DNA from: Aquabacterium sp. CECT 9606
GTDB lineage: Bacteria > Pseudomonadota > Gammaproteobacteria > Burkholderiales > Burkholderiaceae_C
NCBI RefSeq assembly: GCF_918741295.1
Contig: NZ_CAKKNB010000003.1
Coordinates: forward strand, 652,668-684,667
Length of the DNA: 32,000 nucleotides
Direction of reading: 5' to 3'
A program made the position numbers and the translations under genes. A model generated the notes under the pieces. That model saw nothing but the letters and a program-made list of their open reading frames with translations, was not told the DNA's origin and made no database searches. Below, in pieces: positions 1-26,979 of the stretch. The number at the start of each line of letters is the position of its first letter. The stretch's first letter is position 1.

Positions 1-280
1 TCTCGTTGAAAGCGTGCTTGAGGTACAGCAGGGCCACCATCAAACGAATGGGCAGCCTGGGTCGTCCTGCTGCACTGACGCCACCGGCCACAACCACGGC
101 CATGGGGCCGAACATGTCGGCGTCTTCACGCTGCCTGCCCATGCGCGCCTTGCGCGCAAACAGCGGCGCCAGCGACTTCTCGATCTCGACCCAGGGCATG
201 CGCCGACCCAACACTGCCAATGGATGGTTCAGGTCAATCATGCCGTCCAGCCGGGCGCGGAAGAAGTCGGGCGTACTCAT
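1..280 (-). CDS. IS5-family DDE transposase, N-terminal part (partial, continues past left window edge)
   Basis: Reverse-strand reading from ATG (280-278) gives MSTPDFFRARLDGMIDLNHPLAVLGRRMPWVEIEKSLAPLFARKARMGRQRED...GRPRLPIRLMVALLYLKHAFNE with no stop before position 1. This is the typical InsH/DUF772-type N-terminus of IS5-family transposases. It is absent from the ORF track because it is open at the edge. Confidence 0.75.
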   Translation of the reverse strand, partial: MSTPDFFRARLDGMIDLNHPLAVLGRRMPWVEIEKSLAPLFARKARMGRQREDADMFGPMAVVVAGGVSAAGRPRLPIRLMVALLYLKHAFNE

Positions 281-413
281 CAGTTTGCATCCTCAAAACT
301 CTCAGGAACTGAACGCTATTGCACCCAAATCTGAGAGTTCTGACTACCCCCAATCACACGGTTCGCCCAGTGTTCATCAGGGGTGTCGCTATTTTGCAAG
401 GCCGACACCTTAG
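1..413 (-). mobile_element. Partial IS5-family insertion sequence; outer terminus lies at about 409-413
   Basis: The transposase start at 280 is followed by ~130 nt ending in ...GGTGTCGCTATTTTGCAAGGCCGACACC|TTAG. The reverse complement (CT)AAGGTGTCGGCCTTGCAAAA resembles the GGAAGGTCTGCAAAA terminus of the second IS in the window and abuts the same TTAG tetranucleotide. The exact end is uncertain. Confidence 0.45.
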
Positions 414-874
414 CCTACCTTGACACGCGCCGGAACCCATCGTACCTTGCACGTCAAAGTGAATCTCATCTCAGCGTTATAAACAAGAAATTCGGCGCAA
501 CAAGACAAACAAGATTCATACCCGCAGCCAATTTTGAACGTTTCAAAGCATAGGTTAACTGGCGTGGTTCTTTACGTCTTACACTCAGAGCGCTTCGCAC
601 TGGCTCCGATGCAAAATTTGGAAAAGTTCGGCCTTTAGCATCTTAAGTTAAGGAACCGCTGATCAATGACCGCTTCGCGTGCACCCATCGACTGTGATGG
701 GTTTGAATGTCGCGACAGCGGTCAAATTCAGCTGGAATTCATGGTTTTTAGCCTTCTCAAAGTGATTTCAGACCCCTTTCGAGGCTCACTGGAGCCATCA
801 AGACGCACCTCGCGGGCATCAAGCGCCAACAGCTTGGAGCGAGTGATCACCAAATTGACCAAACCATTTTCATT

Positions 875-1390
875 ATGACGAAACCTTACCACCCAGCAGG
901 CAGCTCCCTTGAAAAAACATGCAAAGCTGAACCGAATTCCGCCATTCACGCGGCGAGGCAATTCTCCAACGCCGTGCCTCACAACTTCGACCTGGGCATG
1001 ATTGTGGAATCCATGAGCAGCACAGCGGCAGTAATGCGACTACCCTACCGCAACATACTCATGGGCGACTCGGAAAAAGACTGGCTCTACAGCAGCACCC
1101 TTTACAGCCTAGCGGACGCTGCGTCCGGCATGGCTGTATTTTGCGCATTGAATGAGCTGACATCCATCGCCACGCTGGACATGCGAATTGACTACTTGCG
1201 CCCCACGCCTATTGGCCGCGATCTGTTGGCCAATGCGACTTGCTACCGCTTGACCCGCCAAGTCGCTTTCACGCGCTGCTCCATTTACTTGGCCGATGAT
1301 GACGAGATATGCGCTATCGCCACAGGCACATTTTATTGTGGAAAGCGATCTGCCACGCACACCATCAAAGCCAAGAGAGACTCGATATGA
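875..1390 (+). CDS. PaaI/4HBT-type hotdog-fold thioesterase paralogue (lacks the usual HGG, has YSS)
   Basis: 171-aa ORF. FDLGMIVES...AVMRLPY...DWLYSSTLYSLADAASGMAV...TLDMRIDYLRP fits the PaaI hotdog pattern. Its stop overlaps the next start (ATGA at 1387-1390). Confidence 0.65.
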   Translation: MTKPYHPAGSSLEKTCKAEPNSAIHAARQFSNAVPHNFDLGMIVESMSSTAAVMRLPYRNILMGDSEKDWLYSSTLYSLADAASGMAVFCALNELTSIATLDMRIDYLRPTPIGRDLLANATCYRLTRQVAFTRCSIYLADDDEICAIATGTFYCGKRSATHTIKAKRDSI

Positions 1391-1890
1391 CCCAACGCAT
1401 GAACGCTGTCCTAGAGGCCCTTGCCTCTAACCGCTATCAAGACCTACTTGACGCCATTCCTTATGTTCGCCATTTGGGCATTCGTGTAGAAGGCGAGCAG
1501 GATGCCCGAAAAAGCACTCTTCTCTTCCATCTGCCATTTCGCAATGAGATCATTGGGAACCCTATGCTGCCAGCGCTGCATGGCGGCGTGGTTGGCGCAC
1601 TACTGGAAACAGCCTCGATGATCCAAGTCATTGCCTCTGAGAGGCAGTCACGCATGCCCCGGCTGATTGATTTCTCAGTAGATTACTTGCGCTCAGCGCG
1701 CACGAAAGATTGCTGGGCAGAGTGCAACGTTGTTCGCATGGGCAGCAGCATTGCTGCAGTCAGCGTGCGCTGCTGGCAAGACGATGAGACCGCCCCTATC
1801 GCCACAGCACGGGCTCATTTGTTACTGGTCGAGCCGATGCCACAGCAACACGGCGGATTGCCGATGAAACCCCAACCATTTGATATATAA
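1387..1890 (+). CDS. PaaI/4HBT-type hotdog-fold thioesterase
   Basis: Start chosen at MTQRMNAV (ATGA coupling with the upstream gene). IPYVRHLGIRVE...NPMLPALHGGVVGALLETASM...IDFSVDYLRSA is the canonical PaaI-family core including HGG. Confidence 0.75.
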   Translation: MTQRMNAVLEALASNRYQDLLDAIPYVRHLGIRVEGEQDARKSTLLFHLPFRNEIIGNPMLPALHGGVVGALLETASMIQVIASERQSRMPRLIDFSVDYLRSARTKDCWAECNVVRMGSSIAAVSVRCWQDDETAPIATARAHLLLVEPMPQQHGGLPMKPQPFDI

Positions 1891-1911
1891 ATCAATAAGC
1901 AGGAGCATATC

Positions 1912-3606
1912 ATGCAAATCATTGATATCCCAGATCGCCCCTGGGTGAACTTTCATCAATCACAGCCTGACTTCAATCAAAAAATATTGGGATTGGCCGA
2001 CTTTATCGAGCAGCATGCGAGCGAACGCCAAAAAAAGGCGGCGGCCGAATACCTCGGCGCAACCATAAGCTACGCCGAACTGAATTTTTTGGCAAATAAG
2101 CTGGCCAATGCGCTACGAGACCGTGGCGTGCAGCGCTCGGAGACCATCGGACTGCACCTACCGAATACACCAGAGTATCTTATTGCCCTTGTCGCAGCCT
2201 CTAAGTTGGGCTGCCCAGTAACTGGTGTTTCACCTCTGTTGACCACACCAGAAATTGAACACCAACTTCAGGATGCGGGCGCCCGATTTCTGATTTCAAT
2301 GGAACAAGTTTATACCACGTCCGTGGCACCTGCTGATGGGCGGCTCTCTTTGTTGCGGGGCGTGTTTGTCACCAGTCCCATTGGCATTTTGCCAAAGTGG
2401 AAGCAGCACGCGGCTTATTTTTCTGGAAAGCTGCCGCGCCCAAGTTGGAAACCAATGATCCACACTGCGACCGAAGCGTTCATGCCGGCGGTGCAAAACG
2501 CTTCGGATGCCCACGCCTACGCTTCGGTTGCCGAGGATGAAACTGTATTTATCCAGTATACAGGCGGCACCACCGGAAAGCCCAAGGGGGCAGAGCTCAC
2601 CAAGCGGAATATGTTTGCCAACGGCTTGCAGGCCATGTCCTTCATCGGGGGTGACAGCGGGGATACTTTTGCGTCTGCGTTCCCGTTGTTCCATCAGGCT
2701 GGCCTGGCGATTTCATTGATGGCGTTGCGCGCAGGAGCGCGGCAGTTACTGATTCCGAATCCGCGTGACATTGATTTTTTCATTACTCAGATGAAAAAAT
2801 TCCCTCCAACCATGCTCGGCAACGTTCCTTCTCTCTACCAGATGCTGTTGGAGAAACCAGCATTTCGTGAGATTGATTTTTCGCGGCTACGTGTCGCCTT
2901 TTCAGGGGCTGCACCGTTTGCACCAGAAGGCATCCGTCAGCTTGAGGTCGTTGTCGGTGCCGGCAAACTTTGCGAAGTCTATGGCATGACTGAAACCAGC
3001 CCACTCATCACTATCAACCCACCTGGTCGGACCAAACCCGGCACCGTGGGGATACCACTACCAGGCAGCGATGTGAAAATCATGGACGCGGAAACCGGCA
3101 ACGTTGAGATGCCGGCTGGAGAAGTCGGCGAAATCACGACCTGCGGCCCCAATGTTATGAAGGGTTATCGAGGGCACAGCGAAGCCACTGCCCAGTCAGT
3201 GCGTGAAATCAACGGTAAGCGCTGGATGTACACTGGCGATATCGGGTTTTTTGATGCCGAAGGTTACTTGACCATTTGTGATCGAGCCAAGGATATGCTC
3301 ATTGTTGGTGGGTACAAGGTCTTTTCCGTCGAAGTTGAAAGCAAACTCAAGGAGTTGCCATGCATTGAGCTTTGTGCTTTGGTTGGCCTACCCGATCCCA
3401 ACCGCCCCGGCAACGATATCGTCAAGTTGTATGTGCAGCTTTCGGCCGATTCGAGTTCAGTCAACCGGGATGTTTTGATGGTGCAGATTCTTGACTTCTG
3501 TCGGCAGAACATGGCTCCTTACAAGGTGCCCAAGCACATCGAGTTCATGGCAACGCTGCCACTGACACCTATTGGCAAGCTGGATAAAAAGGCCTTGCGC
3601 AATTGA
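1912..3606 (+). CDS. Medium/long-chain acyl-CoA synthetase (AMP-dependent ligase, AlkK/FadD-like)
   Basis: 564 aa with RBS AGGAG 7 nt upstream. AMP-binding motifs YTGGTTGKPKGA, YGMTE, YTGDIG, GGYKV and the C-terminal PLTPIGKLDKKAL. Confidence 0.9.
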   Translation: MQIIDIPDRPWVNFHQSQPDFNQKILGLADFIEQHASERQKKAAAEYLGATISYAELNFLANKLANALRDRGVQRSETIGLHLPNTPEYLIALVAASKLGCPVTGVSPLLTTPEIEHQLQDAGARFLISMEQVYTTSVAPADGRLSLLRGVFVTSPIGILPKWKQHAAYFSGKLPRPSWKPMIHTATEAFMPAVQNASDAHAYASVAEDETVFIQYTGGTTGKPKGAELTKRNMFANGLQAMSFIGGDSGDTFASAFPLFHQAGLAISLMALRAGARQLLIPNPRDIDFFITQMKKFPPTMLGNVPSLYQMLLEKPAFREIDFSRLRVAFSGAAPFAPEGIRQLEVVVGAGKLCEVYGMTETSPLITINPPGRTKPGTVGIPLPGSDVKIMDAETGNVEMPAGEVGEITTCGPNVMKGYRGHSEATAQSVREINGKRWMYTGDIGFFDAEGYLTICDRAKDMLIVGGYKVFSVEVESKLKELPCIELCALVGLPDPNRPGNDIVKLYVQLSADSSSVNRDVLMVQILDFCRQNMAPYKVPKHIEFMATLPLTPIGKLDKKALRN

Positions 3607-3689
3607 CGAACCAGCGAAGGTGCCCGTACCCAAACACCTGCGTGGTGCGGGTGGCCTTGCTGATTGAAATATGGACCGGAGAAAACCCA

Positions 3690-4364
3690 ATGAATGAACA
3701 CCCGAACTTGGGCACGCTAGCCCCGACGCCACTGATTGACAGCGACCATCCCGATGTGCTCGCTTTCGCAGAACGTCACGCCAAAGGTGCTAACGACCGT
3801 GAGCGAGCTATCGCTCTGTACTATGCGGTACGCGACGGTTTCAAGTACGATCCTTACCGAATTGATCTGTCATCCGACGGGATGAGGGCCAGCCGGGTGA
3901 TCAAGCTGGGTGTCGGCTGGTGTGTGACAAAAGCGACGCTGCTGGCTGCTGCGTCGCGCGCGGCTAGGATCCCGGCGCGTTTGGGCTATTCTGACGTGCG
4001 CAACCACCTGTCGACCGAGCGCATGCGGCAGACGATGAAAACCGACTTGTTTGTATGGCACGGCTATGCCGAAATTTGGCTAGAAGGTGCTTGGGTCAAA
4101 ACCACCCCGGCGTTCAACATAGAGCTTTGTGAGCGATTCGGTCTGCTACCGCTCGATTGGGACGGTCACGCCGATTCGCTCTACCACCCGTTTGATCGAG
4201 AGGGCAACCGTCACATGGAGTATGTACGTCAGCATGGCAGCTTTGACGATGTCCCGTTGGCGGAGATCTCAGCCGCCATTACTAGCACTTACCCTGATTT
4301 GCATGCACTGTCGGTACCAGAAACGAGCTTTGAAGCTGACGTTCTGCGCGAACAATCTCGATGA
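3690..4364 (+). CDS. Transglutaminase-like (papain-fold) domain protein
   Basis: Start at MNEHPNLG behind GGAGA. The core GVGWCVTKATLLAAASRAARIPARLGY...VWHGYAEIWLEGAWVKTTP matches the transglutaminase-core Cys and His positions. The usual Asp of the D-P-T element reads T-T-P here. Confidence 0.7.
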   Translation: MNEHPNLGTLAPTPLIDSDHPDVLAFAERHAKGANDRERAIALYYAVRDGFKYDPYRIDLSSDGMRASRVIKLGVGWCVTKATLLAAASRAARIPARLGYSDVRNHLSTERMRQTMKTDLFVWHGYAEIWLEGAWVKTTPAFNIELCERFGLLPLDWDGHADSLYHPFDREGNRHMEYVRQHGSFDDVPLAEISAAITSTYPDLHALSVPETSFEADVLREQSR

Positions 4365-4418
4365 GTGCGTAAAGCCCGCACAGGATGATTTCGACGACGG
4401 GCCGGAGGCAAATTAGTA

Positions 4419-4449
4419 GCTCAAGAGAGTCAACGTTCTGCTCTTGAGC
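4419..4449. terminator. Hairpin between convergent genes (possible bidirectional terminator)
   Basis: GCTCAAGAG (4419-4427) pairs with CTCTTGAGC (4441-4449) around a 13-nt loop, between the stops at 4364 (+) and 4459 (-). There is no clear U-tract. Confidence 0.35.
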
Positions 4450-4458
4450 CGGGGGCGA

Positions 4459-4884
4459 TCACTCCACAGTCAACAGGACCTTCACCGAAGGGTCCACTGC
4501 GCTTTTTTCGATGTAGCCAACTGCATCTGGATTGGAAGCCAAGAGCTTTTTCACTTCGGCGCTGTTAGCAAGCTCCTTGGGCGGCAGCGCCTTACCCGAA
4601 AAGACCAGACGCGACCATATTGCCTTCACTTGTGCGGCCGACTTTCCGGCTACTTTAGTGTAGAACTGTTCCCGGATAGTGGTTGATTCGGATTGATCTA
4701 CCAACACCGCGCTGCCAGCACCAGGGAGTTGAGCATTTTTGCCAAGAAAGAGGCCAGCGGTTTGTTCGGCATTGAGTGCGGTAGCCGGGCTCTTGGCCCC
4801 AACCACGATGGCGACTTGAGCGTGCGCGGCATGAACAGAGCAAACCACTCCAGCTGCGAGCAGCCAATGATTGATTGATTTCAT
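4459..4884 (-). CDS. Small secreted periplasmic-binding-protein-like protein (PstS-like single lobe)
   Basis: 141 aa with signal peptide MKSINHWLLAAGVVCSVHAAHA. IVVGAKSP...LFLGK...IWSRLVFSGK...VGYIE is the pattern of short proteins usually annotated as phosphate ABC substrate-binding-like. Confidence 0.65.
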   Translation of the reverse strand: MKSINHWLLAAGVVCSVHAAHAQVAIVVGAKSPATALNAEQTAGLFLGKNAQLPGAGSAVLVDQSESTTIREQFYTKVAGKSAAQVKAIWSRLVFSGKALPPKELANSAEVKKLLASNPDAVGYIEKSAVDPSVKVLLTVE

Positions 4885-4897
4885 GATAGACCTCAGC

Positions 4898-6127
4898 TCA
4901 GAAGACGAAGTCCACAGCTAAGCTGTAGACATTGACAGGATTGGCACCAAACCCGGGTTTGACATCGGTGAACAGGCCGACGCCACCGGTGTCAACCTTG
5001 ATTCGATCGAATTGCGCTTTTACAGCAAGATTTTTGCGAGCATCCCAGCGTAAACCGACGGCAGCGGTCTTTTGACCAACAGACGCCAGTAAAGTGTTCA
5101 CACCCCCAGCAAGTTGGTCAAGTCCGGGGTCGATACCTGTGGGGATGACTGACGACGAGATCGGGCTATCCTGAGAGAGTCGAGAGATCGTGACATAAGG
5201 CGTCCATACACCATACCGACGCCCAAGCGTCACGTACCAGCCCGTGGTGTCAGCAAAGAAGGCATCGACTCGGCGCTTGGTGTATTCCGCAGTGCCCACG
5301 AAGTCATTCCAGTCAATCGCGAGGCCTATTCCGGAGAAGGATGCGGCCTTGTCACTGGTGTCCAACTCTTCCGCCAAAGGGACAAGGGCCTCCAAACCCG
5401 GGCTTTGGCCTGCTTGACGCAGCCCGGCAAACAAGCCGTCCAAGCCTGAATTGCCACTCAAGTTGAGCTTGCCTTGCATATGTCCCAACCGCAGCGTCAC
5501 GGGCCCATATTCGGCTGAGGCGTTGAAACCTACCCCACTCTTTAGCTTAGCCTCACCCCCGAACATCTTGCCGGAGGTGCTACCCGTAAATACTTGAGCA
5601 TTCACGTTAGTATCGCCAATGCTGCCTTGATAGGAAACATCCACACCATCGAGATGGCTAAACGGAATCTGACCGTAAACATCAACGGGGGGGCGAAGCC
5701 AGGTGTTGGCATAACCGACGTCACGGAAATCGCTGACGAGGAAGTAAGGCGTGCCTGTCCGGCCCACTCGCGCGCTGAAGCCCTTTCCGAGTTTTATCTT
5801 GGCAAAACCCCACTCGAGTTCCGGGTTCCAGTTACCCTCACCGTTGCGTTTGGTGAGTATCTGAGCGGTTAGCGAAAACACGCTGTTCGGGGTGGCTGAG
5901 ACTTGCAAACCAAGCTTGGAGTCAACACCGTAATCGACTTTCTTTCTTGCCCCCCCCTCCTGAGGAAAGATGCCATAGGCTCCAAGATCTGTGTTGGTCT
6001 TGACGGCTCCCACGGTGCCAAAACCGGAGAAGCTGACCATGGATGGTTCAGTGGTTTCTTCGGCATGAACACCACTTGCATGGACGGCAAAGACCGCAAG
6101 TACTAGGGCACTGGACATAATTCGCAT
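4898..6127 (-). CDS. Outer-membrane beta-barrel porin
   Basis: 409 aa with signal peptide ...AVHASGVHA|EE, alternating beta-strand pattern, Gly/aromatic richness, and the C-terminal signature VYSLAVDFVF ending in Phe. Confidence 0.8.
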   Translation of the reverse strand: MRIMSSALVLAVFAVHASGVHAEETTEPSMVSFSGFGTVGAVKTNTDLGAYGIFPQEGGARKKVDYGVDSKLGLQVSATPNSVFSLTAQILTKRNGEGNWNPELEWGFAKIKLGKGFSARVGRTGTPYFLVSDFRDVGYANTWLRPPVDVYGQIPFSHLDGVDVSYQGSIGDTNVNAQVFTGSTSGKMFGGEAKLKSGVGFNASAEYGPVTLRLGHMQGKLNLSGNSGLDGLFAGLRQAGQSPGLEALVPLAEELDTSDKAASFSGIGLAIDWNDFVGTAEYTKRRVDAFFADTTGWYVTLGRRYGVWTPYVTISRLSQDSPISSSVIPTGIDPGLDQLAGGVNTLLASVGQKTAAVGLRWDARKNLAVKAQFDRIKVDTGGVGLFTDVKPGFGANPVNVYSLAVDFVF

Positions 6128-6303
6128 GAGTGATTCCTTCTAAAAGAGGTAGCGCATGGGATTAACGAACTACTTCGCCACGCAACGAAATTTACTATCG
6201 GCCAATCGACTGCTATCTTCAGAACAATCTGTGATAAAGACCCTTCAAAATTGTTTCACACTGCGACAAACTCACGCGATTGCTCGCTCCCACCGCTAGA
6301 GAC

Positions 6304-6798
6304 TCAAGGCTGGACACCATCCTCCACCATCACGCTGACTTTCTGGAGGGTGGATACGATAGGTCTGTGTGCCCCATCCGACCAATAAACCTTCAGCGTA
6401 TGAGGGCCTATATTGACAGGCAAGTCGAAGACGAAAAGGTACCGATGGTGCCCGAGCCGTATAAGCTGCTCATTCGATGGCATCAAAGACTTGCTGTCTA
6501 CTTCGACATGCAGGTGCGTCCTAACGGCCTGCGAACTCATCGTCAACCGCCGCATGTCGCCAGATGTTTCAAATATCATGGCGAGTTGTTTGCCGACCCT
6601 GGCACCATCCGAAGGCATGAGAATGCGTAGCGGCGGAACCACCATCCCTGCGCTGCCAGTCGCCTGACCTTGACCTAGACGTTCCTTGGTAGGGTGGCTG
6701 TGGTCATGCACATGCAGTTGGTCGGCAGCACCGCCATGCACAAGGGGAGGGGCCAGCATCAGGGCACCAAGCACGACTGCAAACTGGAAGGTCTTCAT
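6304..6798 (-). CDS. Secreted His-rich protein, last gene of the CuMMO operon (DUF4399-like by recollection)
   Basis: 164 aa with a signal peptide ending PPLVHG. The mature N-terminus is GAADQLHVHDHSHP. Later residues RILMPSDGARVG...THLHVEVD...IRLGHHRYLF...GPHTLKVYWSDGAH suggest an Ig-like beta domain with clustered His. It lies 36 nt downstream of copD on the same strand. Confidence 0.6.
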   Translation of the reverse strand: MKTFQFAVVLGALMLAPPLVHGGAADQLHVHDHSHPTKERLGQGQATGSAGMVVPPLRILMPSDGARVGKQLAMIFETSGDMRRLTMSSQAVRTHLHVEVDSKSLMPSNEQLIRLGHHRYLFVFDLPVNIGPHTLKVYWSDGAHRPIVSTLQKVSVMVEDGVQP

Positions 6799-6834
6799 AT
6801 GGATTGAGTCCTTGAACGGCGAGCTGAAATTGAG

Positions 6835-8808
6835 TCAATGAACATGATCGTCAGGGGAAGGTTTGAGCTGAGGTTCAGCATTAAGCTGAACCAGTTCCGG
6901 GAATAATCGATCCAAGTCATCCCAGCCAGACCGATCTTCTTCTGGGATCCAACGTGCCCGGACATAGCCGAAACGGTCAATCAAGAACTCCGCCCTTGCC
7001 CAGTCCATTCCCAGGCGGTCAGGAGCTCCGCGATTGGAAGCGGTGCGCGACAAAAGTTCGTACGCGTCCCAGATTTCCTTGCTTGAACTGCCAAGAACAG
7101 GGAACGGCAGATCTGATGGGGGTGTTACGCCCACCATTGGCACCACCAATAGAACGGCCGTGCGCAGGCTTTGCAAGCGCGGATAACCCGCCACGAGCCT
7201 GCGAATCCGCTCAGCCGACCGCTCATCTCTGTCAAGGAATACCAACAAGACATTGCTGCCCCCCCGGTAGTTCTTGAGTTCGCTGATTTCCGCACTGCCT
7301 TCAATGTAGAAGTTTGGCGCACCTAACCAAGCTTGACCGGAAACAACGCGTGAACTGAGTAACCGCCCTTCAAAGCCCTGAGAAAACGCGCGCAAAAAAT
7401 TGATCAAGTCCCATCGTTCCGAGGTCGACAGCACCTTGCCAAAGCCAGGCATCCCGCTCTCTTGAATACCGTGCGTCAGCCACCAATACACATCGCCTAC
7501 AGTGTGCAGCGCCGTGTGCGGTTGGGTGAGGTTTGCCGGAATTTTGGGAAGCGAAGAGGCTAACGGTCCATCACCGAGACCGCCGCCACCGTGGCAGTGG
7601 ATACAATGCGCCTGAAAAAGCGCTCGTCCCTCCGCAATAGATGCAGTGAGATAAGGAGATTCCGAGCGCCTGTAACTGTCCGGGTAGGCCTTGACGGCCA
7701 GTATCCATGCGAGTGCTACAGCGCTGGTCACGAAGACAAACAAACCTGATTGGCGCAAGGTACGATGGCGACCAAATGTCGTTGTCAACAGACCTACAGC
7801 AAGACAGGCTGCTGCGGTGAGTATCCAAGGGCGTTGCGTAGTCACGATCCATGCCGCATCCAGAGCCCAACGAAATGGCAACCACCAGAACGACGCATCA
7901 TGCAGCGCTGGCGTTGTCTGACCAAGCCACGCCGCGCACCCAAGCACCCCAATTGCAGCAACGAATTCCATCGCAACATGACGTGCAGCCAAACGCGAAG
8001 CCATGGCCAAATTACCGGCCACGCGCAACTGCGGGAGAAAGCCCCTGCGAACACCATTGGCCAGCAATAAAACAACCGCCAAGATGCAAAATTTGGCGAC
8101 CAGCAAGCCACCATATAGCGTACCAAGCAGGTCTCCGGCATTGTTAATGTAAGTGTCGGCTAGTAACGCACCACTCAATACGATGGTGCACATGGCACCT
8201 ATTGCCAGCCAAGAAAAGCGTGTCAGCGCATCCTCAAGCTGGGAGCAAGAAAGACCAGATTGTCCATTTGCAAATGCGCGCACGGTCAGCACCCACAACG
8301 GTAAGGCGCCCATCCAAATGGCCACAGCCAAGACGTGAGCAATATTCAGAACCAGTGTCCAAGACAGTGCTCCGGCTCCGGCTGCGTGCCCCCCCAGTGG
8401 ACCAAGAACCAAGTAAAGGGCAGCAAAGCCCGCACTGATTCGCAAAAAAGATCCATGTAATTGTTCGCGCCGTATTATGAGTATTGACGCCAGCAGCAGA
8501 CAGGAAATAATAGCCCGATAAACCCAAACACGACCAACATGTGTATCGCTCAAAAGCTGATACCAAGCGTTCGTGTTGCCAACAAAACCCCCTAAAATAG
8601 AGATTTGCGCTGTCAGCTTACCAAGATGCGCAAAGACCAATAGAAAGCCGGGCAGCACATACAACAAGACATCGACTCTCTTAAATCGAGAGTTAGGCAG
8701 GCACGTTGCGCTGGGCAAGCATATGTGACGGAAAACTGTCGTGCCGACGACAACTGAGCCAGCCGCCAAGGTCAACCATTGACACAAGGCGGAGATGAAG
8801 CTAATCAA
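6835..8808 (-). CDS. copD: CopD-family polytopic membrane protein fused to a class-I cytochrome c and a Cys-free thioredoxin-fold domain
   Basis: 657 aa. Residues ~1-390 are hydrophobic multi-helix CopD-like. The heme motif CIHCH sits at codons 402-406 (nt 7591-7605), with the distal SGMPGFG Met. Residues ~495-625 (NVLLVFLDRD...FLIDRFGYVRARW) look like a redoxin fold but contain no Cys at all. The start overlaps the copC stop by 8 nt. Confidence 0.85.
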   Translation of the reverse strand: MISFISALCQWLTLAAGSVVVGTTVFRHICLPSATCLPNSRFKRVDVLLYVLPGFLLVFAHLGKLTAQISILGGFVGNTNAWYQLLSDTHVGRVWVYRAIISCLLLASILIIRREQLHGSFLRISAGFAALYLVLGPLGGHAAGAGALSWTLVLNIAHVLAVAIWMGALPLWVLTVRAFANGQSGLSCSQLEDALTRFSWLAIGAMCTIVLSGALLADTYINNAGDLLGTLYGGLLVAKFCILAVVLLLANGVRRGFLPQLRVAGNLAMASRLAARHVAMEFVAAIGVLGCAAWLGQTTPALHDASFWWLPFRWALDAAWIVTTQRPWILTAAACLAVGLLTTTFGRHRTLRQSGLFVFVTSAVALAWILAVKAYPDSYRRSESPYLTASIAEGRALFQAHCIHCHGGGGLGDGPLASSLPKIPANLTQPHTALHTVGDVYWWLTHGIQESGMPGFGKVLSTSERWDLINFLRAFSQGFEGRLLSSRVVSGQAWLGAPNFYIEGSAEISELKNYRGGSNVLLVFLDRDERSAERIRRLVAGYPRLQSLRTAVLLVVPMVGVTPPSDLPFPVLGSSSKEIWDAYELLSRTASNRGAPDRLGMDWARAEFLIDRFGYVRARWIPEEDRSGWDDLDRLFPELVQLNAEPQLKPSPDDHVH

Positions 8809-9202
8809 CGGCCTTCTCGTGGGCGTTCAAACGAAATCCATACCCATATTCCACTACATGCCCATCCACAGAAAGGACACGATATTTAACCGTGTATGCA
8901 CCATTACTCAACAAAGGCAGCGGAACATAGATACAACTGGGCTTTTTGGGATCCTTTGCCGGGACTGACAATGGCACCAGCTTGCCCTTCGCGTCTTCAA
9001 TCGTGACCGTCGAGAAACTAGCCTCTACGTCTTCGTTAAAACACAAACGGATTTCTTTGGGCACCATCGTCAGCACCGCACGGCGCCCCGGTTCGGAGCT
9101 AATCATTCCCGCATGAGCCATGGCAATAGAGGGACAAAGTGCAACGCTCAGCACTGTCAGCCCCACTGACGAACGGACTATTTGCCGGATGAAAACAATC
9201 AT
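8801..9202 (-). CDS. copC: CopC periplasmic copper-binding protein
   Basis: 133 aa with signal peptide ...PSIAMA|HAGMISSEPG (mature N-terminal His). YTVKYRVLSVDGHVVEYGYGF is the CopC C-terminal signature. ATGA overlap with the upstream gene. Confidence 0.85.
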   Translation of the reverse strand: MIVFIRQIVRSSVGLTVLSVALCPSIAMAHAGMISSEPGRRAVLTMVPKEIRLCFNEDVEASFSTVTIEDAKGKLVPLSVPAKDPKKPSCIYVPLPLLSNGAYTVKYRVLSVDGHVVEYGYGFRLNAHEKAVD

Positions 9203-9804
9203 AAATTACCGCCCGAGGCTTGCTTGCCCGACGCTCGGTATTTACGCGAAGTCAGGTAATAGGCCAAGCCTGCCAATCCAAAGGAAAACAGAAAGGCGAT
9301 GACATAACGACCGTACTGAAGGACGCCGACTTTGAAGGGAAAAACAGAGTGATGTACAACACCGGTTTTCAGGTCTGTAGCCGTCAACATGCCGATATAC
9401 CACCCCGGCTGGACAAATTGGTGATCGAAGGTGACGGTTCCACGAGGATAGACTGATGGCGCCATTTTGACAACTGTTGCCGCATCAATTTCCTGCTGGG
9501 TACCCAAGTCCTCATAACGTCCAGCAGCCTCCCGATTTTTGACATCCCTCAGAACCCGAACCTCGACATTCATTTGACGTAATTCAGACGAAATATAGTC
9601 AATCACAATGATTGCGCGCCCGAGCTCTGGGATGTCCTCACAGAACTGCTGTGTGGCACGCACCTCTGGCTGATAGCCGGTAAAGTGCGCCGTCATGTTG
9701 GATACCTTCATGATGCACTTATCGTCCTCAATAGACACTCCGCCGTGCGCAAAGACCAGCGAAGGCGACAAGGTAACGAGCAACATGGCAAGTAGCTTTT
9801 TCAT
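9199..9804 (-). CDS. PmoD/AmoD-like periplasmic protein with C-terminal membrane anchor
   Basis: 201 aa with signal peptide ...PSLVFA|HGG, a ~150-aa soluble domain and a C-terminal TM helix YVIAFLFSFGLAGLAYYLT. Its position directly after xmoB matches pmoD/amoD in xmoCABD clusters. The family assignment rests on architecture and position only. Confidence 0.5.
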   Translation of the reverse strand: MKKLLAMLLVTLSPSLVFAHGGVSIEDDKCIMKVSNMTAHFTGYQPEVRATQQFCEDIPELGRAIIVIDYISSELRQMNVEVRVLRDVKNREAAGRYEDLGTQQEIDAATVVKMAPSVYPRGTVTFDHQFVQPGWYIGMLTATDLKTGVVHHSVFPFKVGVLQYGRYVIAFLFSFGLAGLAYYLTSRKYRASGKQASGGNL

Positions 9805-9814
9805 TACTCACCAT

Positions 9815-11044
9815 TCAACGAAATACTGGGATCATTGGGCCGCCAAATTCAGCCAGATAACGCTGACCACGGTCAGTGTAGAAGAACAGCATGCCGGCCA
9901 CCACCGCATCGGGTGATGCGATCATCGTGGTCATCCTTTCGGTTTCCCACATGGCATCATCAGCGTAGAGCACCACGCGCTTGGTTTCACCTGCTGCCAC
10001 TGGGCCACCTTCAACGCGTAGAGCATCAGGTGCGACCAGATCACTCTCGTCGAGAGGCTTGACCTTGCGCACAGCCGAGTTGATGAAACGCAGACTCCCA
10101 GCATCAAACTCGCCAATGGAGACGGGTTCATTGCCACGATTGGTGACTTCAATTTCCAGACGAAAACTTCGTCCAGGAATGCGATAACGGGCCTCGATCA
10201 GCTTGATCGACACTGGGTTTGGCTCCCGCTCAAGCGAAGGAACCTCCACCCGGCCAGTCTGCAGGGGCGTCGTGATCGGATATTGGTCTTGGGCGTGGAG
10301 ATAACTGCCTCCGATCAGACTCAAGGTCAGAAGCAGAAACACGGCGGCCATGACGCGATCTATTGGCGTAATCATCTTGTCCGCATCTGCACCCAGCTCC
10401 TGCGCACGCTTGAAGCGCGGCACGATGATCGGGCACTTCGTGAGCCAGTAAGCGAACCAAGCTAGACCAACGGCAAACCACAAAATAGACCAGAACTTGA
10501 CATTATCAAACCCATAGGTCTCCATATCAATGACCTTACCCAGCAGCGTGGTCGCGTTATTCTCGAAATCTGCTGCATTACCGGTAACCTCAACCCAGAT
10601 TCCGGGGCCGATTATAGGACCCGTGCCCTCAACGTTGATGACTGGGTGGACGTGATAGCGACCAGGTTTACGGGCTTTCAGCTTGACTTCGAAATCATAT
10701 AGCTCACCCTTGTTGAAGGACGTCGATCGAATCATCGGCGTGCCGTTGACACGAGAGTCGAGTCGAACAAATGAAGGGCCTGGAACACCAATATTAAGAA
10801 ATGCCGTCCCCTCAATTGAATTCACGTGGTGCGGCCAATATTCAGATGGCATGAACTGCCCCTTGACCATGACCAACTCATTCACCGCCAACTTCGTTGT
10901 CGACACCTGCACGTCCATCCAGTGCACGGTTCTCATGCGCAATTGGGGCATCTGTGCGCGTTCGCCATGCGCAAAAGCGGACGAAGAAATGAAGGCACCC
11001 ATCAGCGCAAACAGCGCAATGCACATTGCAATGATTCTTTTCAT
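9815..11044 (-). CDS. xmoB: Copper membrane monooxygenase subunit B (PmoB/AmoB homologue)
   Basis: 409 aa with signal peptide ...SSSAFA|HGERAQMPQLRMRTVHWMD, GRYHVHPVINVEG (the His plus HxH copper ligand set of PmoB), two central TM helices (FWSILWFAVGLAWFAYWL and VMAAVFLLLTLSLIGG) and a C-terminal cupredoxin-like half. RBS GAGGAGG. Confidence 0.93.
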   Translation of the reverse strand: MKRIIAMCIALFALMGAFISSSAFAHGERAQMPQLRMRTVHWMDVQVSTTKLAVNELVMVKGQFMPSEYWPHHVNSIEGTAFLNIGVPGPSFVRLDSRVNGTPMIRSTSFNKGELYDFEVKLKARKPGRYHVHPVINVEGTGPIIGPGIWVEVTGNAADFENNATTLLGKVIDMETYGFDNVKFWSILWFAVGLAWFAYWLTKCPIIVPRFKRAQELGADADKMITPIDRVMAAVFLLLTLSLIGGSYLHAQDQYPITTPLQTGRVEVPSLEREPNPVSIKLIEARYRIPGRSFRLEIEVTNRGNEPVSIGEFDAGSLRFINSAVRKVKPLDESDLVAPDALRVEGGPVAAGETKRVVLYADDAMWETERMTTMIASPDAVVAGMLFFYTDRGQRYLAEFGGPMIPVFR

Positions 11045-11053
11045 ATTACCTCC

Positions 11054-11818
11054 TCAAACAATTTTCCGGATCCAGATCGCCTTCGACCCCAAGTAACCAA
11101 TCCATATCCAGAACCACAAATTAAGGATATTTAGAAAGCCTGCAAAAACTGCCGTCAACGGCGTCACCGCCTCACCAAAGGTACGAAGCGTTGACTGCTC
11201 AATGATGCGCACATATTCAGGAATTGCCGTGCGGATGTATTCATAACCAATTAAATCAGCCACAGTGAGCATCGTGCCATGCAGATTCACTGGCACCATG
11301 AAAGGCGCGAGCAAAGCCCAATTGAGTGGATAAATCAGCACACCAAAAGCGAATCCACCAAATAGGCCCGTCCAAAAAAAACTACCCGTCAACAGTAACA
11401 AACAGTCCAGTATCAAGCCTAGCCCTATATAGGTTGAAGGCCAGACAAAATTCATCGGAAAATCCGCGAACAGATGAAAATTGAGGTAGCGACTGATCCA
11501 AGCGGCGAAGGTCAGGCACAAGATAGACAAGGTTCCACCAAGTGGCAGCCGCAGCTTTGCCCAAAATACATAGGAGAAGACACCTGGCAGAACAGTCAGT
11601 GCCAGAGGGGTTACCAGAGGCCACCAACGACGATCACGCCAATCGACCCAATAATCCCAATCACCAACCAGCAAGGCAAAGTGAAAGCTGAAGATACCCG
11701 CAAACAGCAAGACAACCAGCGGGATGACAAACAAATCCACCTGGATATATGCCCGTTTTTGCTCCTCGGGTGAAATCATACCCGATTGGGCCAATACCGT
11801 ATCCGAATCGCTTGTCAT
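11054..11818 (-). CDS. xmoA: Copper membrane monooxygenase subunit A (PmoA/AmoA homologue)
   Basis: 254 aa. GDWDYWVDWRDRRWWPLVTPL, NFVWPS, YPLNWALLAPFMVPVN and IPEYVRIIEQSTLRTFGEAVTP align with the conserved PmoA/AmoA blocks. RBS AAGGAA. Confidence 0.93.
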   Translation of the reverse strand: MTSDSDTVLAQSGMISPEEQKRAYIQVDLFVIPLVVLLFAGIFSFHFALLVGDWDYWVDWRDRRWWPLVTPLALTVLPGVFSYVFWAKLRLPLGGTLSILCLTFAAWISRYLNFHLFADFPMNFVWPSTYIGLGLILDCLLLLTGSFFWTGLFGGFAFGVLIYPLNWALLAPFMVPVNLHGTMLTVADLIGYEYIRTAIPEYVRIIEQSTLRTFGEAVTPLTAVFAGFLNILNLWFWIWIGYLGSKAIWIRKIV

Positions 11819-11985
11819 TTGTTATTTCCTTAAAACACCGAATGCTCATCAGCTGGTGATTTTGGCAGTTTGGAAAAAAACATCCCGAGCACCAGCCAAA
11901 TCATTTTATTTTGTAATGTAAACAGCAAAGCGCTTCACTCGGCTTCAGCACTTGCTCAAAGAAAACTAGTGTGCTCAGCTTGCAG

Positions 11986-12018
11986 AAAACGGCATGCGCA
12001 TCTCGCGCATGCCGTTTT
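11986..12018 (-). terminator. Perfect 14-bp stem-loop 33 nt downstream of the xmoC stop (attenuator, terminator or mRNA-stability hairpin)
   Basis: AAAACGGCATGCGC (11986-11999) pairs with GCGCATGCCGTTTT (12005-12018) around a 5-nt loop. On the transcribed strand the stem ends in UUUU. Confidence 0.5.
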
Positions 12019-12050
12019 TAGGTAGAAAGGCCAGAGCCGTCAAATCACAT

Positions 12051-12821
12051 TCAATTGACTGTTTGCAATTTCTTGGCAGTATCGTCATCGCCATGACCGA
12101 TAACTCTAGTCAACTCGACGATGCGGGTCAACATTTGCACCAGCAAACCTCCAGCCGCGAACGCGGACCACCCAAGCAACACGAATCCCCAGTGGATAGG
12201 CGCCGCGAACAACTCTTCAGCATAAAAAAAAGTGTGCCCCCATTCATTCAATCCGAGATTGGGCATGATCATGATCGGGCCAGCCACCAACAATCCAAAT
12301 GGCAGTGAAATTCGGTTGGCAAACTGCGGCAGTCTTGTGCGCGCATAGATGAAGGCCGAGACGCCAGCGATGATGAACATCGGAATGCCAAAGTAAAATA
12401 GCACTATGTGTGTCGGCGTGAAATCGGTATCGCGCACCGTCACCTGGTGCCAAGCGGCATCAGCTTCCGTGAACACCGAAGCCACGAGGTAAGCGATGAC
12501 AGAGAACAGCAAAATCTGGGCCAGCAGTACAAAATAGCGTCTCAACTCATCCACCGGCTTTAACTGGTCAAGTCGGCGGTCACGCGTCATCAAAAGCCAC
12601 ACACCAATGCTGCACCCCACAAGAGCAAGTACTGGTAGTTGGATATAGAGCAGCCTCATCCAATATTGCTGGAACTCAGGCGAGAAATAGTCTAGCCCGA
12701 CAGTGAATGCAGTTGCATGCTGGTAAATGCGATAACTGCCAAAAACAACAGCAACCACTAAAAGTCCCAAGAAGAATTTAGCCCAAGGGGCCTTCGGTGA
12801 TTTGTAGGCTGATGAATTCAT
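12051..12821 (-). CDS. xmoC: Copper membrane monooxygenase subunit C (PmoC/AmoC homologue)
   Basis: Start chosen at MNSSAYKSPKAPW (ATG 12821) behind AAGGAG, giving 256 aa. VRDTDFTPTHIV and PNLGLNEWGHTFFYAEELFAAPIHWG are the hallmark PmoC/AmoC metal-site blocks. Confidence 0.92.
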   Translation of the reverse strand: MNSSAYKSPKAPWAKFFLGLLVVAVVFGSYRIYQHATAFTVGLDYFSPEFQQYWMRLLYIQLPVLALVGCSIGVWLLMTRDRRLDQLKPVDELRRYFVLLAQILLFSVIAYLVASVFTEADAAWHQVTVRDTDFTPTHIVLFYFGIPMFIIAGVSAFIYARTRLPQFANRISLPFGLLVAGPIMIMPNLGLNEWGHTFFYAEELFAAPIHWGFVLLGWSAFAAGGLLVQMLTRIVELTRVIGHGDDDTAKKLQTVN

Positions 12822-13059
12822 TGCGCAACTCCTTTTGAACGAAAGTGCCCGCCTGCACCAGAGCAAACCATGGCGACAGATGCTTTCGTATGTTGCAGAA
12901 CCCACGTCATCGTTGCTATTAGTAAAATCACTTATGTACTTACCCAGCATTGACGACATCATCGTTACGCCCGAACCTTAAAAGTTACGCGTCACCGCTC
13001 TTTTTTTATTGGGTTCAAATCGTGTATCGCAGATGCATCTATCTTTCATGCTCAACAGC

Positions 13060-14116
13060 ACACCTGGCGACGTTCAGCGTTCCTGAACGTCCTCATCAGG
13101 CCTACGCCGTCTATGGCGACTCGACTTGCGGGCAACGCGCGCGCTATCCCGTCGGGATGAGCGGCATCCCGGTCACCAATGCCTACGACAACTGCTCAAC
13201 AGGCTCTACAGCGCTGTTTTTGGCGCGTCAAGCAGTTGAAGGCGATGCTGCGGATTGTGTACAGGCACTAGGCTTCGAACAAATGAAGCCTAGCGCGCTC
13301 GGCAGCTACTACAACGACAACCCCCTACCTACCCCCGTCGCGCCGTTTGAAAGCGCCCGTGCGGCGCTAGTGGGCTAGCCTGATGTGTGTGTGCCCCTAT
13401 ATGGTCATCTCTTTTGGCGGCGCTGGCATCGCTCACATGGAGAAATACGGCACCAAGGCCATTCGCCATGCTGCAAATAGTCCCGTGGCACTGTTTCGGA
13501 AGGAGGTAACCATGGAAGAAGTCATGAGTTCACCCGCTTTGATTGGGCCTCTGGCCCGTCTGATGGTCTGCCCCCCCACCGGCTGCGGCGCCGCAGTCAT
13601 CGTTTGCTCGGAAGAATTCGCCAGGGCCAACGGACTAGCCCATCGGGTGAAGATCGTCGCCCGGTTCATGACCACCGACACACCCAGCACCTTTGAAGCG
13701 CGGAGCATGATCCAGTTGGTTGGCGGCTATATGACAAGCGCGGCCGCCACCCAGGTTTACACGGTGGCAGGCATTGGCCCAAAAGATGTGAATGTGGTAG
13801 AGCTGCACGACTGCTTTGCCACTAATGAGCCACTGACCTACGAGGCATTTGAACTTGAAATAGCACCAGAGGGTGGCGGCGAAAAAATGGTAGCAGATTG
13901 TGACAACACTTACGGCTGCCGCGTGGTCACCGATCCTCAAGTGGCTTGTTGTCAAAAGGACACCTTCTTTGAGCCACTGGTCTGGCTCAATGCGCCGAGC
14001 TGGTTCAGCAACTCCGGGGAGAAGCAGGCGCTCGCCAAGTGCATGGCGCCAGGGTGGCCTCACAACACAACCTGGGGCTGGGCGGGGCCGGCGTTGTCAC
14101 GCTCGACCAAGCCTGA
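13060..14116 (+). pseudogene. SCP2/Ltp-type thiolase, N-terminally truncated with frameshifts and an internal stop
   Basis: Homology (YGDSTCGQRA...NCSTGSTALFLARQAVE...GFEQM) starts without the first ~60 codons and stops at 13376-13378. It resumes in another frame (FGGAGIAHMEKYGTK...VVELHDCFATNE...DNTYG). The conserved tail is readable only after a further shift near 13930, and it carries an in-frame TGA at 13970-13972: [29 protein letters not shown]...[16 protein letters not shown]. Confidence 0.8.
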
Positions 14117-23664: not shown

Positions 23665-24192
23665 ATGTCCTATGAGAAATCGCGTGTTCGCCCCAAGCGG
23701 ACCTGCATCGAGATCGAAGAAGCACGCGCCTGGGTTGGCTTTTACCGACGTGTCAGCAGCGACCCCGCTGTTGCCACCGAAGTGATGGCCCAACTTGAGG
23801 CCGTGCCCGAGATGAAGCGCGCCCACCTGGCCCTGTACCTGTGTTGCAAGGAATCCTTGCGCACGCACAAGGCCACGCAAGCTCGCAACAAGCGGATCGG
23901 CCAGTTCGTGCGCTGGCTGGCCCATGGTTTGGTGATCGTGCCTGCGCAAAGCATGCTCAGGGCGCTCCACCAGGGCAGAGAGATGGCTGTCGAATGCCTG
24001 CCCATGATCGACACCAAAGCAGGCAAAGAGCCTGGCGTGCCTCAGGTTCGCCGCCTGAGGCAAGAGGCTGAGTTCGCCCAGGCCCAGGCATCGTTTGATG
24101 CGCAAGCCGGGGCCCCATCCAGCGAGCCCGCATCCACACCCGCTGTGAACAAGGCTTCGCCCCAGCCCAAGGCTGCGCCCACCGCAGCTTGA
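23665..24192 (+). CDS. Hypothetical protein (175 aa) with Ala/Pro/Gln-rich tail
   Basis: Start at MSYEKSRVRPKRT behind GGAGA. The third-position G/C bias favours this strand over the overlapping minus-strand ORF. Confidence 0.6.
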   Translation: MSYEKSRVRPKRTCIEIEEARAWVGFYRRVSSDPAVATEVMAQLEAVPEMKRAHLALYLCCKESLRTHKATQARNKRIGQFVRWLAHGLVIVPAQSMLRALHQGREMAVECLPMIDTKAGKEPGVPQVRRLRQEAEFAQAQASFDAQAGAPSSEPASTPAVNKASPQPKAAPTAA

Positions 24193-24376
24193 GCTTGCAG
24201 CACGTCATGGACTTGCTGTCCTGACGGTGGCTCACCGACACCACCCCTGGTGAGCCCAGATCGTCGAACGCGCATGCCCACCCCAGCGGTGGTGCATGCC
24301 GCGTTCGCCCCCTCCCAACGTCGCCCGCCTCGATTTGCCATTGGCAGATCGGCGCCCCCTTATGAAAGGACTCCCC

Positions 24377-24607
24377 ATGGCCACCGTTGCCGAAACCCTG
24401 CATGCCATTGAGGTGCGTGCCGATCGCGCCATCGTCCAGGAACTGCGCTTGCTGATCAAGGAAGTGCAGGCGCTCCAGCCCTCACTGCTGGGGGACGACC
24501 GCGCGCATGCCCATGCGCTGTTGCTTAAGCTCGATCACCTGCGCCAAAGCCAGGTGGTGGACAGCATCGGCGATCAAGCATTTTTCTTGTTGTCAGCCCA
24601 AGGCTGA
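24377..24607 (+). CDS. Small helical hypothetical protein (76 aa)
   Basis: Start at MATVAETL behind AAGGA. Codon bias is consistent with the neighbouring genes. Confidence 0.5.
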   Translation: MATVAETLHAIEVRADRAIVQELRLLIKEVQALQPSLLGDDRAHAHALLLKLDHLRQSQVVDSIGDQAFFLLSAQG

Positions 24608-24682
24608 TACCCATTCATCACGCCTGCGGGGCCCACGGCCCTGGCGGCGGTGCGTCCCCAGGTTTCCACCGAAGGAACCCTC

Positions 24683-25354: not shown

Positions 25355-25384
25355 AGACCTGCGCGCCTGTTGGTCGTTGAGGCT

Positions 25385-25600
25385 CTAAGCCGCCTCACGG
25401 CACCGCTGGTACTCGCGGTCAATCAGCCAGTGCAAGAACTGCGTCTCCTTGGAGACGCCCCAGTAATGGGCCTTGCACAGCGCAATGTAGGCCGCCAGGT
25501 CGCTGAGTGATCGAATGCCGACGGGCTCCAGGTCGGTGATCTTCTTGAAGCGTTCGATCTCTCGCCGTGTCAGTCGAATGTGTTGGCCAAAACGAATCAT
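25385..25600 (-). CDS. Small hypothetical protein (71 aa), the only minus-strand gene in the array
   Basis: MIRFGQHIRLTRREIERFKKI... has good third-position G/C bias and is convergent with the 223-aa gene. The RBS is weak. Confidence 0.4.
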   Translation of the reverse strand: MIRFGQHIRLTRREIERFKKITDLEPVGIRSLSDLAAYIALCKAHYWGVSKETQFLHWLIDREYQRCREAA

Positions 25601-25869: not shown

Positions 25870-25892
25870 GGCGTCGCAGTCGTCACCTGCCT
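25870..25892 (+). repeat. Repeat box 1, copy B (GGCGTCGCAGTCGTCACCTGCCT)
   Basis: See 23155-23177. Confidence 0.8.
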
Positions 25893-25929
25893 CATCAACC
25901 GTGCTGGCCTCGCGTCAGCACCTCCTGAG

Positions 25930-26943: not shown

Positions 26944-26979
26944 CACACCGACAGATACCAACAGTCCATACGCCCTCAC

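Follow-up and report, generated by a model that had tools for sequence, protein, structure and literature searches.

A CopD fusion gene within a copper monooxygenase cluster

The 32,000-nucleotide stretch of Aquabacterium sp. CECT 9606 DNA analysed here (contig NZ_CAKKNB010000003.1; hereafter the window) carries a tightly packed minus-strand gene cluster headed by xmoC, and the sixth gene of this cluster is the subject of the present report. This gene (positions 6835 to 8808, minus strand) encodes, according to the open reading frame list and its translation, a protein of 657 amino acids in which a CopD-type membrane domain, a cytochrome c and a thioredoxin-like domain are joined in one chain. 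Translation starts with a TTG codon at 8808 and ends with a stop codon at 6835-6837, and the 5′ end of the gene overlaps the copC stop by 8 nucleotides. The start lines up with homologues beginning MIE..., and an identical 657-amino-acid protein is already present in database records. A preliminary description of the window had proposed this same arrangement, a tri-domain fusion of CopD, cytochrome c and a cysteine-free thioredoxin fold inside a monooxygenase operon. Pfam, profile searches and AlphaFold models compared by Foldseek bear out the proposal, and its coordinates are correct, with the gene on the minus strand.

The preceding genes, like every other gene and motif of the window described below, also lie on the minus strand. 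The xmoCAB genes (9815-12962) of a copper membrane monooxygenase (CuMMO) comprise xmoC (12051-12962), xmoA (11054-11818) and xmoB (9815-11044), and are recognized by the Pfam families AmoC, AMO and Monooxygenase_B with E values of 1e-76 to 1e-122. These are followed by a PmoD/AmoD-like gene (9199-9804) and by copC (8801-9202; Pfam CopC, 72 bits), which lies directly upstream of the fusion gene and overlaps its start. In the genome, the CuMMO and the fusion each occur once.

The fusion is no chance open reading frame, as residues 380-657 have matches in 1369 database proteins (E≤0.001). Among the best 120 of these 1369 matches, almost all are 595-673 amino acids long and have the same Pfam content, and the few shorter ones look like truncated gene calls. 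Conservation was counted over 184 aligned full-length members that are 26-53% identical to the fusion (median 39%), and seven histidines other than the haem ligand are conserved in at least 182 of the 184, at positions 141, 158, 303, 431, 435, 655 and 657.

The novelty that the preliminary description had implied for this layout does not hold. In one sentence, a published paper puts at about 4% the share of the CopD sequences it analysed, CopD of M. trichosporium OB3b among them, that have a cytochrome cbb3 domain and a C-terminal domain resembling Sco1 or thioredoxin (PMC11923076). With its CopD core, cbb3-type cytochrome and thioredoxin-like C-terminus, the Aquabacterium protein belongs to this subgroup. 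Papers on nitrifiers and methanotrophs otherwise treat the gene as a generic CopD. In many copper monooxygenase gene clusters, however, the usual copD is of this type. In beta-proteobacterial nitrifiers and comammox Nitrospira, the copD gene of the amoCABED-copCD cluster resembles the fusion in domain order and length; the products from Nitrosomonas, Nitrosospira and comammox Nitrospira are 33-37% identical to it over their full length, and their genes likewise sit after copC and a PmoD/AmoD-like gene. Unlike the hosts of these nitrifier and methanotroph copD genes, Aquabacterium is neither a nitrifier nor a methanotroph, and its enzyme is an xmo-type CuMMO. What appears to be new here are the residue-level links to E. 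coli YebZ and to the cytochrome CytC552, the conservation figures, a phyletic count taken from both sides, and the finding that the C-terminal domain is confined to the fusion and is nearer to ResA, TlpA and peroxiredoxins than to Sco1.

The membrane domain retains the CopD uptake histidines

Residues 1-372 (7693-8808) form the membrane domain, composed of the eight CopD helices and an additional two-helix hairpin (approximately residues 328-372). This region contains a CopD domain as judged by Pfam (PF05425, residues 194-295, 59 bits against a cut-off of 32.1), although it is not a canonical CopD equivalog, since the NCBIfam model copper_CopD (NF033808) scores only 90.1 bits over positions 5-300 against an equivalog cut-off of 195. 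Hydropathy analysis reveals 10 hydrophobic helices, and the loops rich in lysine and arginine all fall on one side, which places the N-terminus and residues 373-657 in the predicted periplasm. A divergent relative that lacks the hairpin gives the same orientation. Thus the haem and thioredoxin-like domains are both predicted to be periplasmic, as the preliminary description had anticipated. An AlphaFold model of the full-length protein (pLDDT 88.3, pTM 0.81) finds the same C-terminal folds as a model of the C-terminal domain alone.

This part of the protein can be compared with E. coli YebZ, which, like the classical CopD/PcoD proteins, is an eight-helix putative copper importer partnered by YobA or CopC. 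The periplasm-facing histidines H141 (in GHAAG) and H158 (in IAHVL), encoded within 8329-8391, align with YebZ H135 and H154. Both YebZ residues are required for copper uptake, and the copper site of the CopC-type protein YobA was modelled less than 5 Å from H135 (PMC11923076). H141 is kept in 182 and H158 in all 184 of the aligned members, and a further membrane-domain histidine, H303, in 183. The fusion thus shares with YebZ the Pfam CopD domain, the uptake histidine pair and a copC-type gene directly upstream, whereas its core is only about 23% identical to YebZ and it carries two extra helices and 285 extra periplasmic residues. Copper import is a putative activity of the fusion.

A class I cytochrome c related to the partner of a copper enzyme

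The second domain (residues 373-474; 7387-7692) matches the Pfam families Cytochrome_CBB3 (PF13442) and Cytochrom_C (PF00034) above their cut-offs over residues 390-473 (45.8 bits for PF00034, where 21.3 are needed). Its single haem attachment motif, C402-I-H-C-H406, is encoded at 7591-7605, and the presumed distal ligand M453 lies within SGMPGFG (residues 451-457; 7438-7458), both as noted in the preliminary description. C402 and C405 are each kept in 183/184 members, H406 in 184/184 and M453 in 183/184. One CxxCH motif, a distal methionine and the Cytochrom_C match together are the marks of a class I c-type cytochrome. The genome encodes CcmE and ResB, so that periplasmic haem attachment is possible, and we predict that the domain is a mono-haem cytochrome with covalently bound haem.

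Although an uncharacterized dihaem protein (6H5L) gives the better score (E 5e-18), the closest characterized relatives of this domain in the PDB are structures of Thioalkalivibrio CytC552 (7O9U and 9VR0; E 3e-14 to 7e-14). CytC552 of Thioalkalivibrio paradoxus is the redox partner of a trinuclear-copper thiocyanate dehydrogenase, and has a midpoint potential (Em) of about +160 mV; its haem is exposed to solvent, and its disordered ends are rich in histidine. The likeness includes the CxxCH motif, a stretch of the form H..xH..GD, the sequence MPGFG and the sequence WDL(V/I)NF. In an alignment whose CytC552 numbering was checked against the published Cys55, Cys58, His59 and Met103, M453 corresponds to Met103, H431 to His83 and H435 to His87. 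The last two residues of the fusion lie in PHTALHT (7501-7521), which is followed by G438-D439; each histidine is kept in 183 of the 184 members and D439 in 180. In CytC552, His83 is hydrogen-bonded to the 7-propionate of the haem, and the route modelled for electrons from the thiocyanate dehydrogenase copper to the haem runs through this residue. Because H431 aligns with His83, we read this residue as a candidate electron port. H431 and H435 were also considered as a second copper site, and the alignment with His83 supports the haem-propionate port better.

The relationship extends to gene context, as copCD lies in the gene cluster around the thiocyanate dehydrogenase gene, with the CytC552 gene upstream of the dehydrogenase operon. 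The same parts occur there unfused. CytC552 differs in being a free, soluble protein with no CopD or thioredoxin fusion, and in serving another partner enzyme.

In the CytC552/thiocyanate dehydrogenase pair, electrons pass from Cu(I) to the haem. A corresponding flow in the fusion would have the haem oxidize Cu(I) to Cu(II), either as a protective measure or to load Cu(II) His-brace sites in CopC, the PmoD-like protein or XmoB, and the prediction that CopC and the PmoD-like protein each mature with an N-terminal histidine would suit such targets. However, Cu(I) oxidation in the periplasm is usually the work of multicopper oxidases, and this reading offers no reason to tether such an oxidase to an uptake-type permease. 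We regard this reverse direction as very improbable.

A thioredoxin fold without cysteines and a conserved H-x-H tail

The third domain (residues 475-657; 6838-7386) has a thioredoxin fold according to profile searches and AlphaFold/Foldseek comparisons. The Pfam family AhpC-TSA (PF00578) matches it over its full length but weakly (E 0.006; 17 bits, under the 26-bit cut-off). A profile built from 41 family members, cut from the fetched loci, matches PDB entries for M. tuberculosis AhpE (E 1e-6), for Bcp peroxiredoxins and for ResA and TlpA. When an AlphaFold model of the domain (pLDDT 83.9, pTM 0.85) was submitted to Foldseek, it retrieved ResA, DsbE and Bcp with E values of approximately 1e-7 and TM-scores, normalized to the target, of 0.70-0.76. 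The redoxin-like fold given in the preliminary description is therefore upheld, whereas its size, put there at about 130 amino acids, is closer to 150-180 folded residues.

This fold has none of the cysteines on which its relatives depend for catalysis. The cysteines of the fusion are at positions 9, 30, 36, 103, 188, 207, 241, 291, 335, 402 and 405, so that, as had been remarked before, C405 of the haem motif is the last one. The sequence LLVFLDRDERS (7216-7248) forms the strand and loop at the former position of the CxxC or peroxidatic cysteine, and in the AhpE profile alignment the peroxidatic cysteine column is occupied by S531 of this sequence. Unlike the ResA, CcmG and TlpA proteins, with which it shares the fold, the domain has no CxxC, and unlike the Bcp and AhpE peroxiredoxins it has no peroxidatic cysteine; the sub-threshold Pfam score, S531 at the cysteine position and the lack of any cysteine after residue 405 all separate it from true peroxiredoxins. 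Likewise, 162 of the 184 aligned members have no cysteine after the haem motif. These findings indicate a redoxin fold that is non-functional as a thiol oxidoreductase or peroxiredoxin. The published likeness to Sco1 (PMC11923076) was not reproduced by our profile and fold searches, as no Sco protein appeared among PDB profile matches at E≤1 or among the top 50 Foldseek matches, and there is no CxxxC motif; ResA, TlpA, Bcp and AhpE are all nearer.

When the C-terminal domain alone was compared with 1.84 billion representative sequences, 265 clusters were found at E≤0.001, and all clusters inspected proved to be fusions of 600-750 amino acids or fragments of them. Candidate stand-alone proteins of about 205-220 amino acids all start at the axial methionine motif (MPGF or MPAF), and were set aside as truncated gene calls. 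In the clusters inspected, the domain is found solely in the CopD fusion. A group of conserved arginine, tyrosine, tryptophan and aspartate residues (R515, R534, Y583, R588, D611, R612, Y615, R617, R619 and W620) suggests that it presents a specific binding surface.

The protein ends in PDDHVH (residues 652-657; 6838-6855), the terminus given in the preliminary description, and an H-x-H end is found in 181 of 185 full-length members. Among 40 loci, the sole substitution of H655 is methionine, likewise a copper ligand, in two Nitrosomonadaceae (M-x-H). This tail is probably a flexible arm, since its confidence is low in both AlphaFold models.

These data allow for another explanation, namely that the protein is an ordinary CopD importer in which the haem and thioredoxin-like domains play a regulatory or structural part, for example as a redox or oxygen gate on copper entry or as a docking platform, with no copper chemistry of their own. 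The intact CopD core and histidine pair, the loss of the catalytic cysteines in 162 of 184 members, and the mild phenotype of a copCD mutant of M. trichosporium OB3b, as relayed second-hand in a review, would all be compatible with such a role. However, the CXXCH motif, Met453, H431/H435 and the terminal HxH are each kept in at least 98% of members despite a median identity of 39%, which points to a functional redox and metal site, and the confinement of the C-terminal domain to the fusion also speaks against it. On balance, we consider it improbable that the added domains are mere accessories.

The surrounding gene cluster

The PmoD/AmoD-like gene encodes a protein of 201 amino acids that has a signal peptide, a cluster of cysteine, methionine and histidine residues and a C-terminal membrane helix, and that finds no match in Pfam or NCBIfam. 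Its motif is C-x6-M-x2-H (CIMKVSNMTAH), compared with the published Cx7MxH CuA motif, and its N-terminal histidine is predicted to be exposed once the signal peptide is cleaved. CopC is predicted to have the mature N-terminus HAGM... and contains a DGH motif.

Downstream of the fusion, the operon is closed by a gene (6304-6798) for a secreted histidine-rich protein of 164 amino acids with HVHDHSH directly after its signal peptide and at most a weak hint of DUF4399. Homologues hold the same position in 25 of 47 CuMMO-holding loci and are clustered in 33 of the 47. These homologues, with identities of 35-65%, follow the fusion in xmo clusters of the Nevskiales type, the Bradyrhizobium type and others, whereas nitrifier clusters do not have them in this place. 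Consensus scans for promoters and terminators inside the operon gave no more sites than shuffled sequence.

Several observations suggest that the whole cluster was acquired horizontally as a unit. First, the G+C content of the region around the xmo cluster (window positions 1-14000) is 50-55%, compared to 60-67% at the far end (24000-32000). Second, four sampled genomes of the family to which the source belongs have neither a CuMMO nor the fusion. Third, XmoA of the host is 82-88% identical to that of Nevskiales genomes, while the host itself belongs to the same order as Nitrosomonas.

The fusion is rare and concentrated in CuMMO-bearing genomes

A scan of one genome per species, covering about 185,000 species, yielded 197 matching stretches. 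Gene neighbourhoods were examined for 80 of these 197, which come from Nevskiales-type gammaproteobacteria, from Bradyrhizobium and other alphaproteobacteria, from Nitrosomonas, Nitrosospira and Nitrosovibrio, and from comammox Nitrospira. A copC homologue adjoins the fusion in 76 of the 80 loci, and a PmoD/AmoD-like gene does so in 62, nitrifiers included. Where at least 6 kb of upstream sequence was available (52 loci), xmoCAB or amoCAB genes lie inside the fetched flank in 41. The 11 loci with no CuMMO nearby belong to nitrifiers, comammox bacteria, one Bradyrhizobium and one gammaproteobacterium, and in all five that were tested, subunit A is encoded elsewhere in the genome. The preliminary description had named, as a result that would undermine it, a fusion common in copCD loci unrelated to CuMMOs; with 197 stretches in some 185,000 genomes, concentrated where CuMMOs occur, this is not what we find.

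The set stays clustered through four gene orders. Eight loci (L015, L016, L018, L023, L027, L031, L034 and L038) show the three other arrangements, in which either copC and the fusion come first or xmoCAB is inverted. The identity of the fusions to the Aquabacterium protein is loosely correlated with that of the corresponding XmoA proteins (Spearman 0.49), and Bradyrhizobium-type fusions are nearer to this fusion than expected from their XmoA. Reshuffling of the modules is one possibility.

The association was then counted from both sides in even samples of three orders. Among 201 genomes of the source's own order, which includes Nitrosomonas-like bacteria, nine carry the fusion and six a CuMMO; no CuMMO genome lacks the fusion, and three fusion carriers lack a CuMMO. 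The evidence for the enzyme is subunit A in five of the six and an AmoB fragment at a contig end in the other. In a methanotroph-rich order (121 genomes), the fusion occurs in eight genomes and subunit A in 92, so that 84 CuMMO genomes do without the fusion, while none of the 29 CuMMO-negative genomes carries it. All eight carriers have subunit A, in none of them beside the fusion. Finally, neither the fusion nor a CuMMO was found in 250 other genomes of the Bradyrhizobium order, for which 13 candidates per genome were scored; as this sample contains no CuMMO genome, it serves as negative background only. Across the 573 genomes of the three orders, 15 of 18 fusion carriers have a CuMMO, and the fusion is present in 15 of 99 CuMMO genomes and in three of 474 CuMMO-free genomes, figures to be read with the non-independence of related genomes, the choice of the three centre genomes as carriers and the incompleteness of assemblies in mind. 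The fusion is thus rare and concentrated in CuMMO-bearing genomes and, three carriers excepted, can be counted by its co-occurrence with xmo, amo or pmo genes among the accessory set of these enzymes.

In the methanotroph-rich order, the genomes of the eight carriers are small (1.6-2.5 Mb), and most of these carriers also have a divergent subunit A (E 1e-82 to 1e-97, compared to about 1e-125 for canonical forms). Within this order, the fusion may be tied to one particular lineage of CuMMO.

All three fusion carriers that have no CuMMO keep copC and the HxH end. In one of them, whose genome is 100% complete, the copC-fusion pair stands among unrelated genes. L085 (G018:C2, 9535-13071) encodes a divergent fusion of 613 amino acids in a complete CuMMO-free genome; it is without the two extra helices, ends in NLHAH and has amidohydrolase, ABC-binding-protein and EamA genes as neighbours. 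The upstream CopC domain at this locus ends a 553-amino-acid open frame that is possibly an over-extended call in high-G+C DNA. L086 (G198:C28, 7430-10383) has consecutive genes for a PmoD/AmoD-like protein, CopC and the fusion, and no CuMMO subunit A or B was detected in its 94% complete genome. PmoD homologues have been reported solely from CuMMO-bearing species (PMC6189053).

This distribution bears directly on a second role, a form of the electron entry point proposed at the outset, in which the haem is a conduit that takes electrons from the pool of cytochrome c and delivers them to the PmoD-like CuA-type protein or directly to XmoB/XmoC, and CopD is a mere anchor beside the enzyme. CuA sites in oxidases take electrons from cytochrome c. 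The location of the gene inside xmo and amo clusters, the adjacent PmoD/AmoD-like gene in 62 of 80 loci, the status of CytC552 as a catalytic redox partner of a copper enzyme and the formation of a CuA-like site by PmoD (PMC6189053) would all fit such a conduit. Nevertheless, the 84 of 92 CuMMO genomes in the methanotroph-rich order that do without the fusion make a universal electron-donor role unlikely, and the carriers in that order have it away from the enzyme genes. Moreover, three carriers have no CuMMO to supply, the second-hand account of the OB3b copCD mutant reports no loss of a phenotype based on particulate methane monooxygenase (pMMO), and a conduit would give no account of the strictness with which the full CopD core and the uptake histidines are conserved. 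We accordingly give little credence to the electron conduit, and of the two functions put forward in the preliminary description, this one is weakened by the absence of the fusion from 84 of 92 genomes, by the three CuMMO-less carriers and by the mutant, while reduction of Cu(II) to Cu(I) stays plausible.

Haem-assisted copper handling as a possible function

The domain architecture, residue conservation, predicted topology and genomic linkage described above are observations. They have led us to favour, tentatively and at somewhat less than even odds, the hypothesis that the protein performs haem-assisted Cu(II)/Cu(I) handling of copper delivered by CopC, with CopD equipped with a one-electron centre of its own. 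Because the CopD uptake histidines and copC are strictly retained, the core job is expected to be copper handling at the periplasmic face. Electron transfer between haem and copper appears the most economical addition to this job, since the haem is of a type that partners copper, the port histidine is invariant and so is the flexible end with its two histidines (or Met/His). In addition, the carriers that lack a CuMMO keep copC and HxH, and therefore copper handling fits better than a role specific to the enzyme.

In the mechanism that we envision, CopC would bind Cu(II) at its N-terminal histidine site and dock at H141/H158 of CopD, while the periplasmic cytochrome c pool feeds the fused haem. 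An electron leaving through the port formed by H431 and the haem propionate would turn the tightly held Cu(II) into Cu(I), causing its release. The Cu(I) could then pass through CopD, or be handed on by the flexible H-x-H tail on its cysteine-less scaffold, and in the Aquabacterium genome the main client would be the adjacent copper monooxygenase with its PmoD-like partner. For this scheme, we infer the redox step, the direction of the electron, what the tail does and which protein is the client.

Several points weigh against this hypothesis. According to the second-hand account in the review, copCD is not critical for either copper uptake or the copper switch in OB3b, a strain in which methanobactin provides a second copper uptake route. 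Most CuMMO genomes of the methanotroph-rich order (84/92) load their enzyme without the fusion. Furthermore, the potential of the Cu(II)-CopC couple may be too low for a haem at +150-250 mV unless the reaction is drawn forward by an acceptor that binds Cu(I) tightly. Finally, the cysteine-free domain is assigned no role beyond that of carrying the tail, and one Nitrosomonas member lacks the HxH tail.

A related proposal, which we hold to be doubtful, sees the fusion as a built-in cupric reductase of the periplasm. Electrons from respiration would enter the haem and pass out by way of H431 and the propionate to Cu(II) bound between CopC and the CopD histidine pair, and the terminal H-x-H arm on the inactive thioredoxin scaffold would bring the resulting Cu(I) either to the monooxygenase or to the PmoD-like protein. 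Cupric reductases tied to copper delivery are known from other systems, such as bacterial CcoG in the assembly of cbb3 oxidase and the eukaryotic Fre/STEAP proteins that act ahead of Ctr1. The proposed logic, in which Cu(II) becomes Cu(I) ahead of its transport or insertion, is alike in these cases, although the folds and cofactors are unrelated to those of the fusion. If this proposal is true, a cupric reductase would be the missing metallation route for a large branch of the CuMMOs, comprising the ammonia monooxygenase (AMO) of nitrifiers, alphaproteobacterial pMMO and xmo-type alkane enzymes.

These results bear on the route by which copper reaches the membrane sites of methane, ammonia and alkane monooxygenases, and on the reductant of those sites. 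The gene described here, which is listed in the field as a generic 'CopD copper importer', actually encodes a distinct predicted haem protein, and so provides a testable candidate for a redox step in the copper supply of nitrifiers and hydrocarbon oxidizers. Given the absence of the fusion from most gammaproteobacterial methanotroph-type genomes, any such redox step would be specific to certain lineages.

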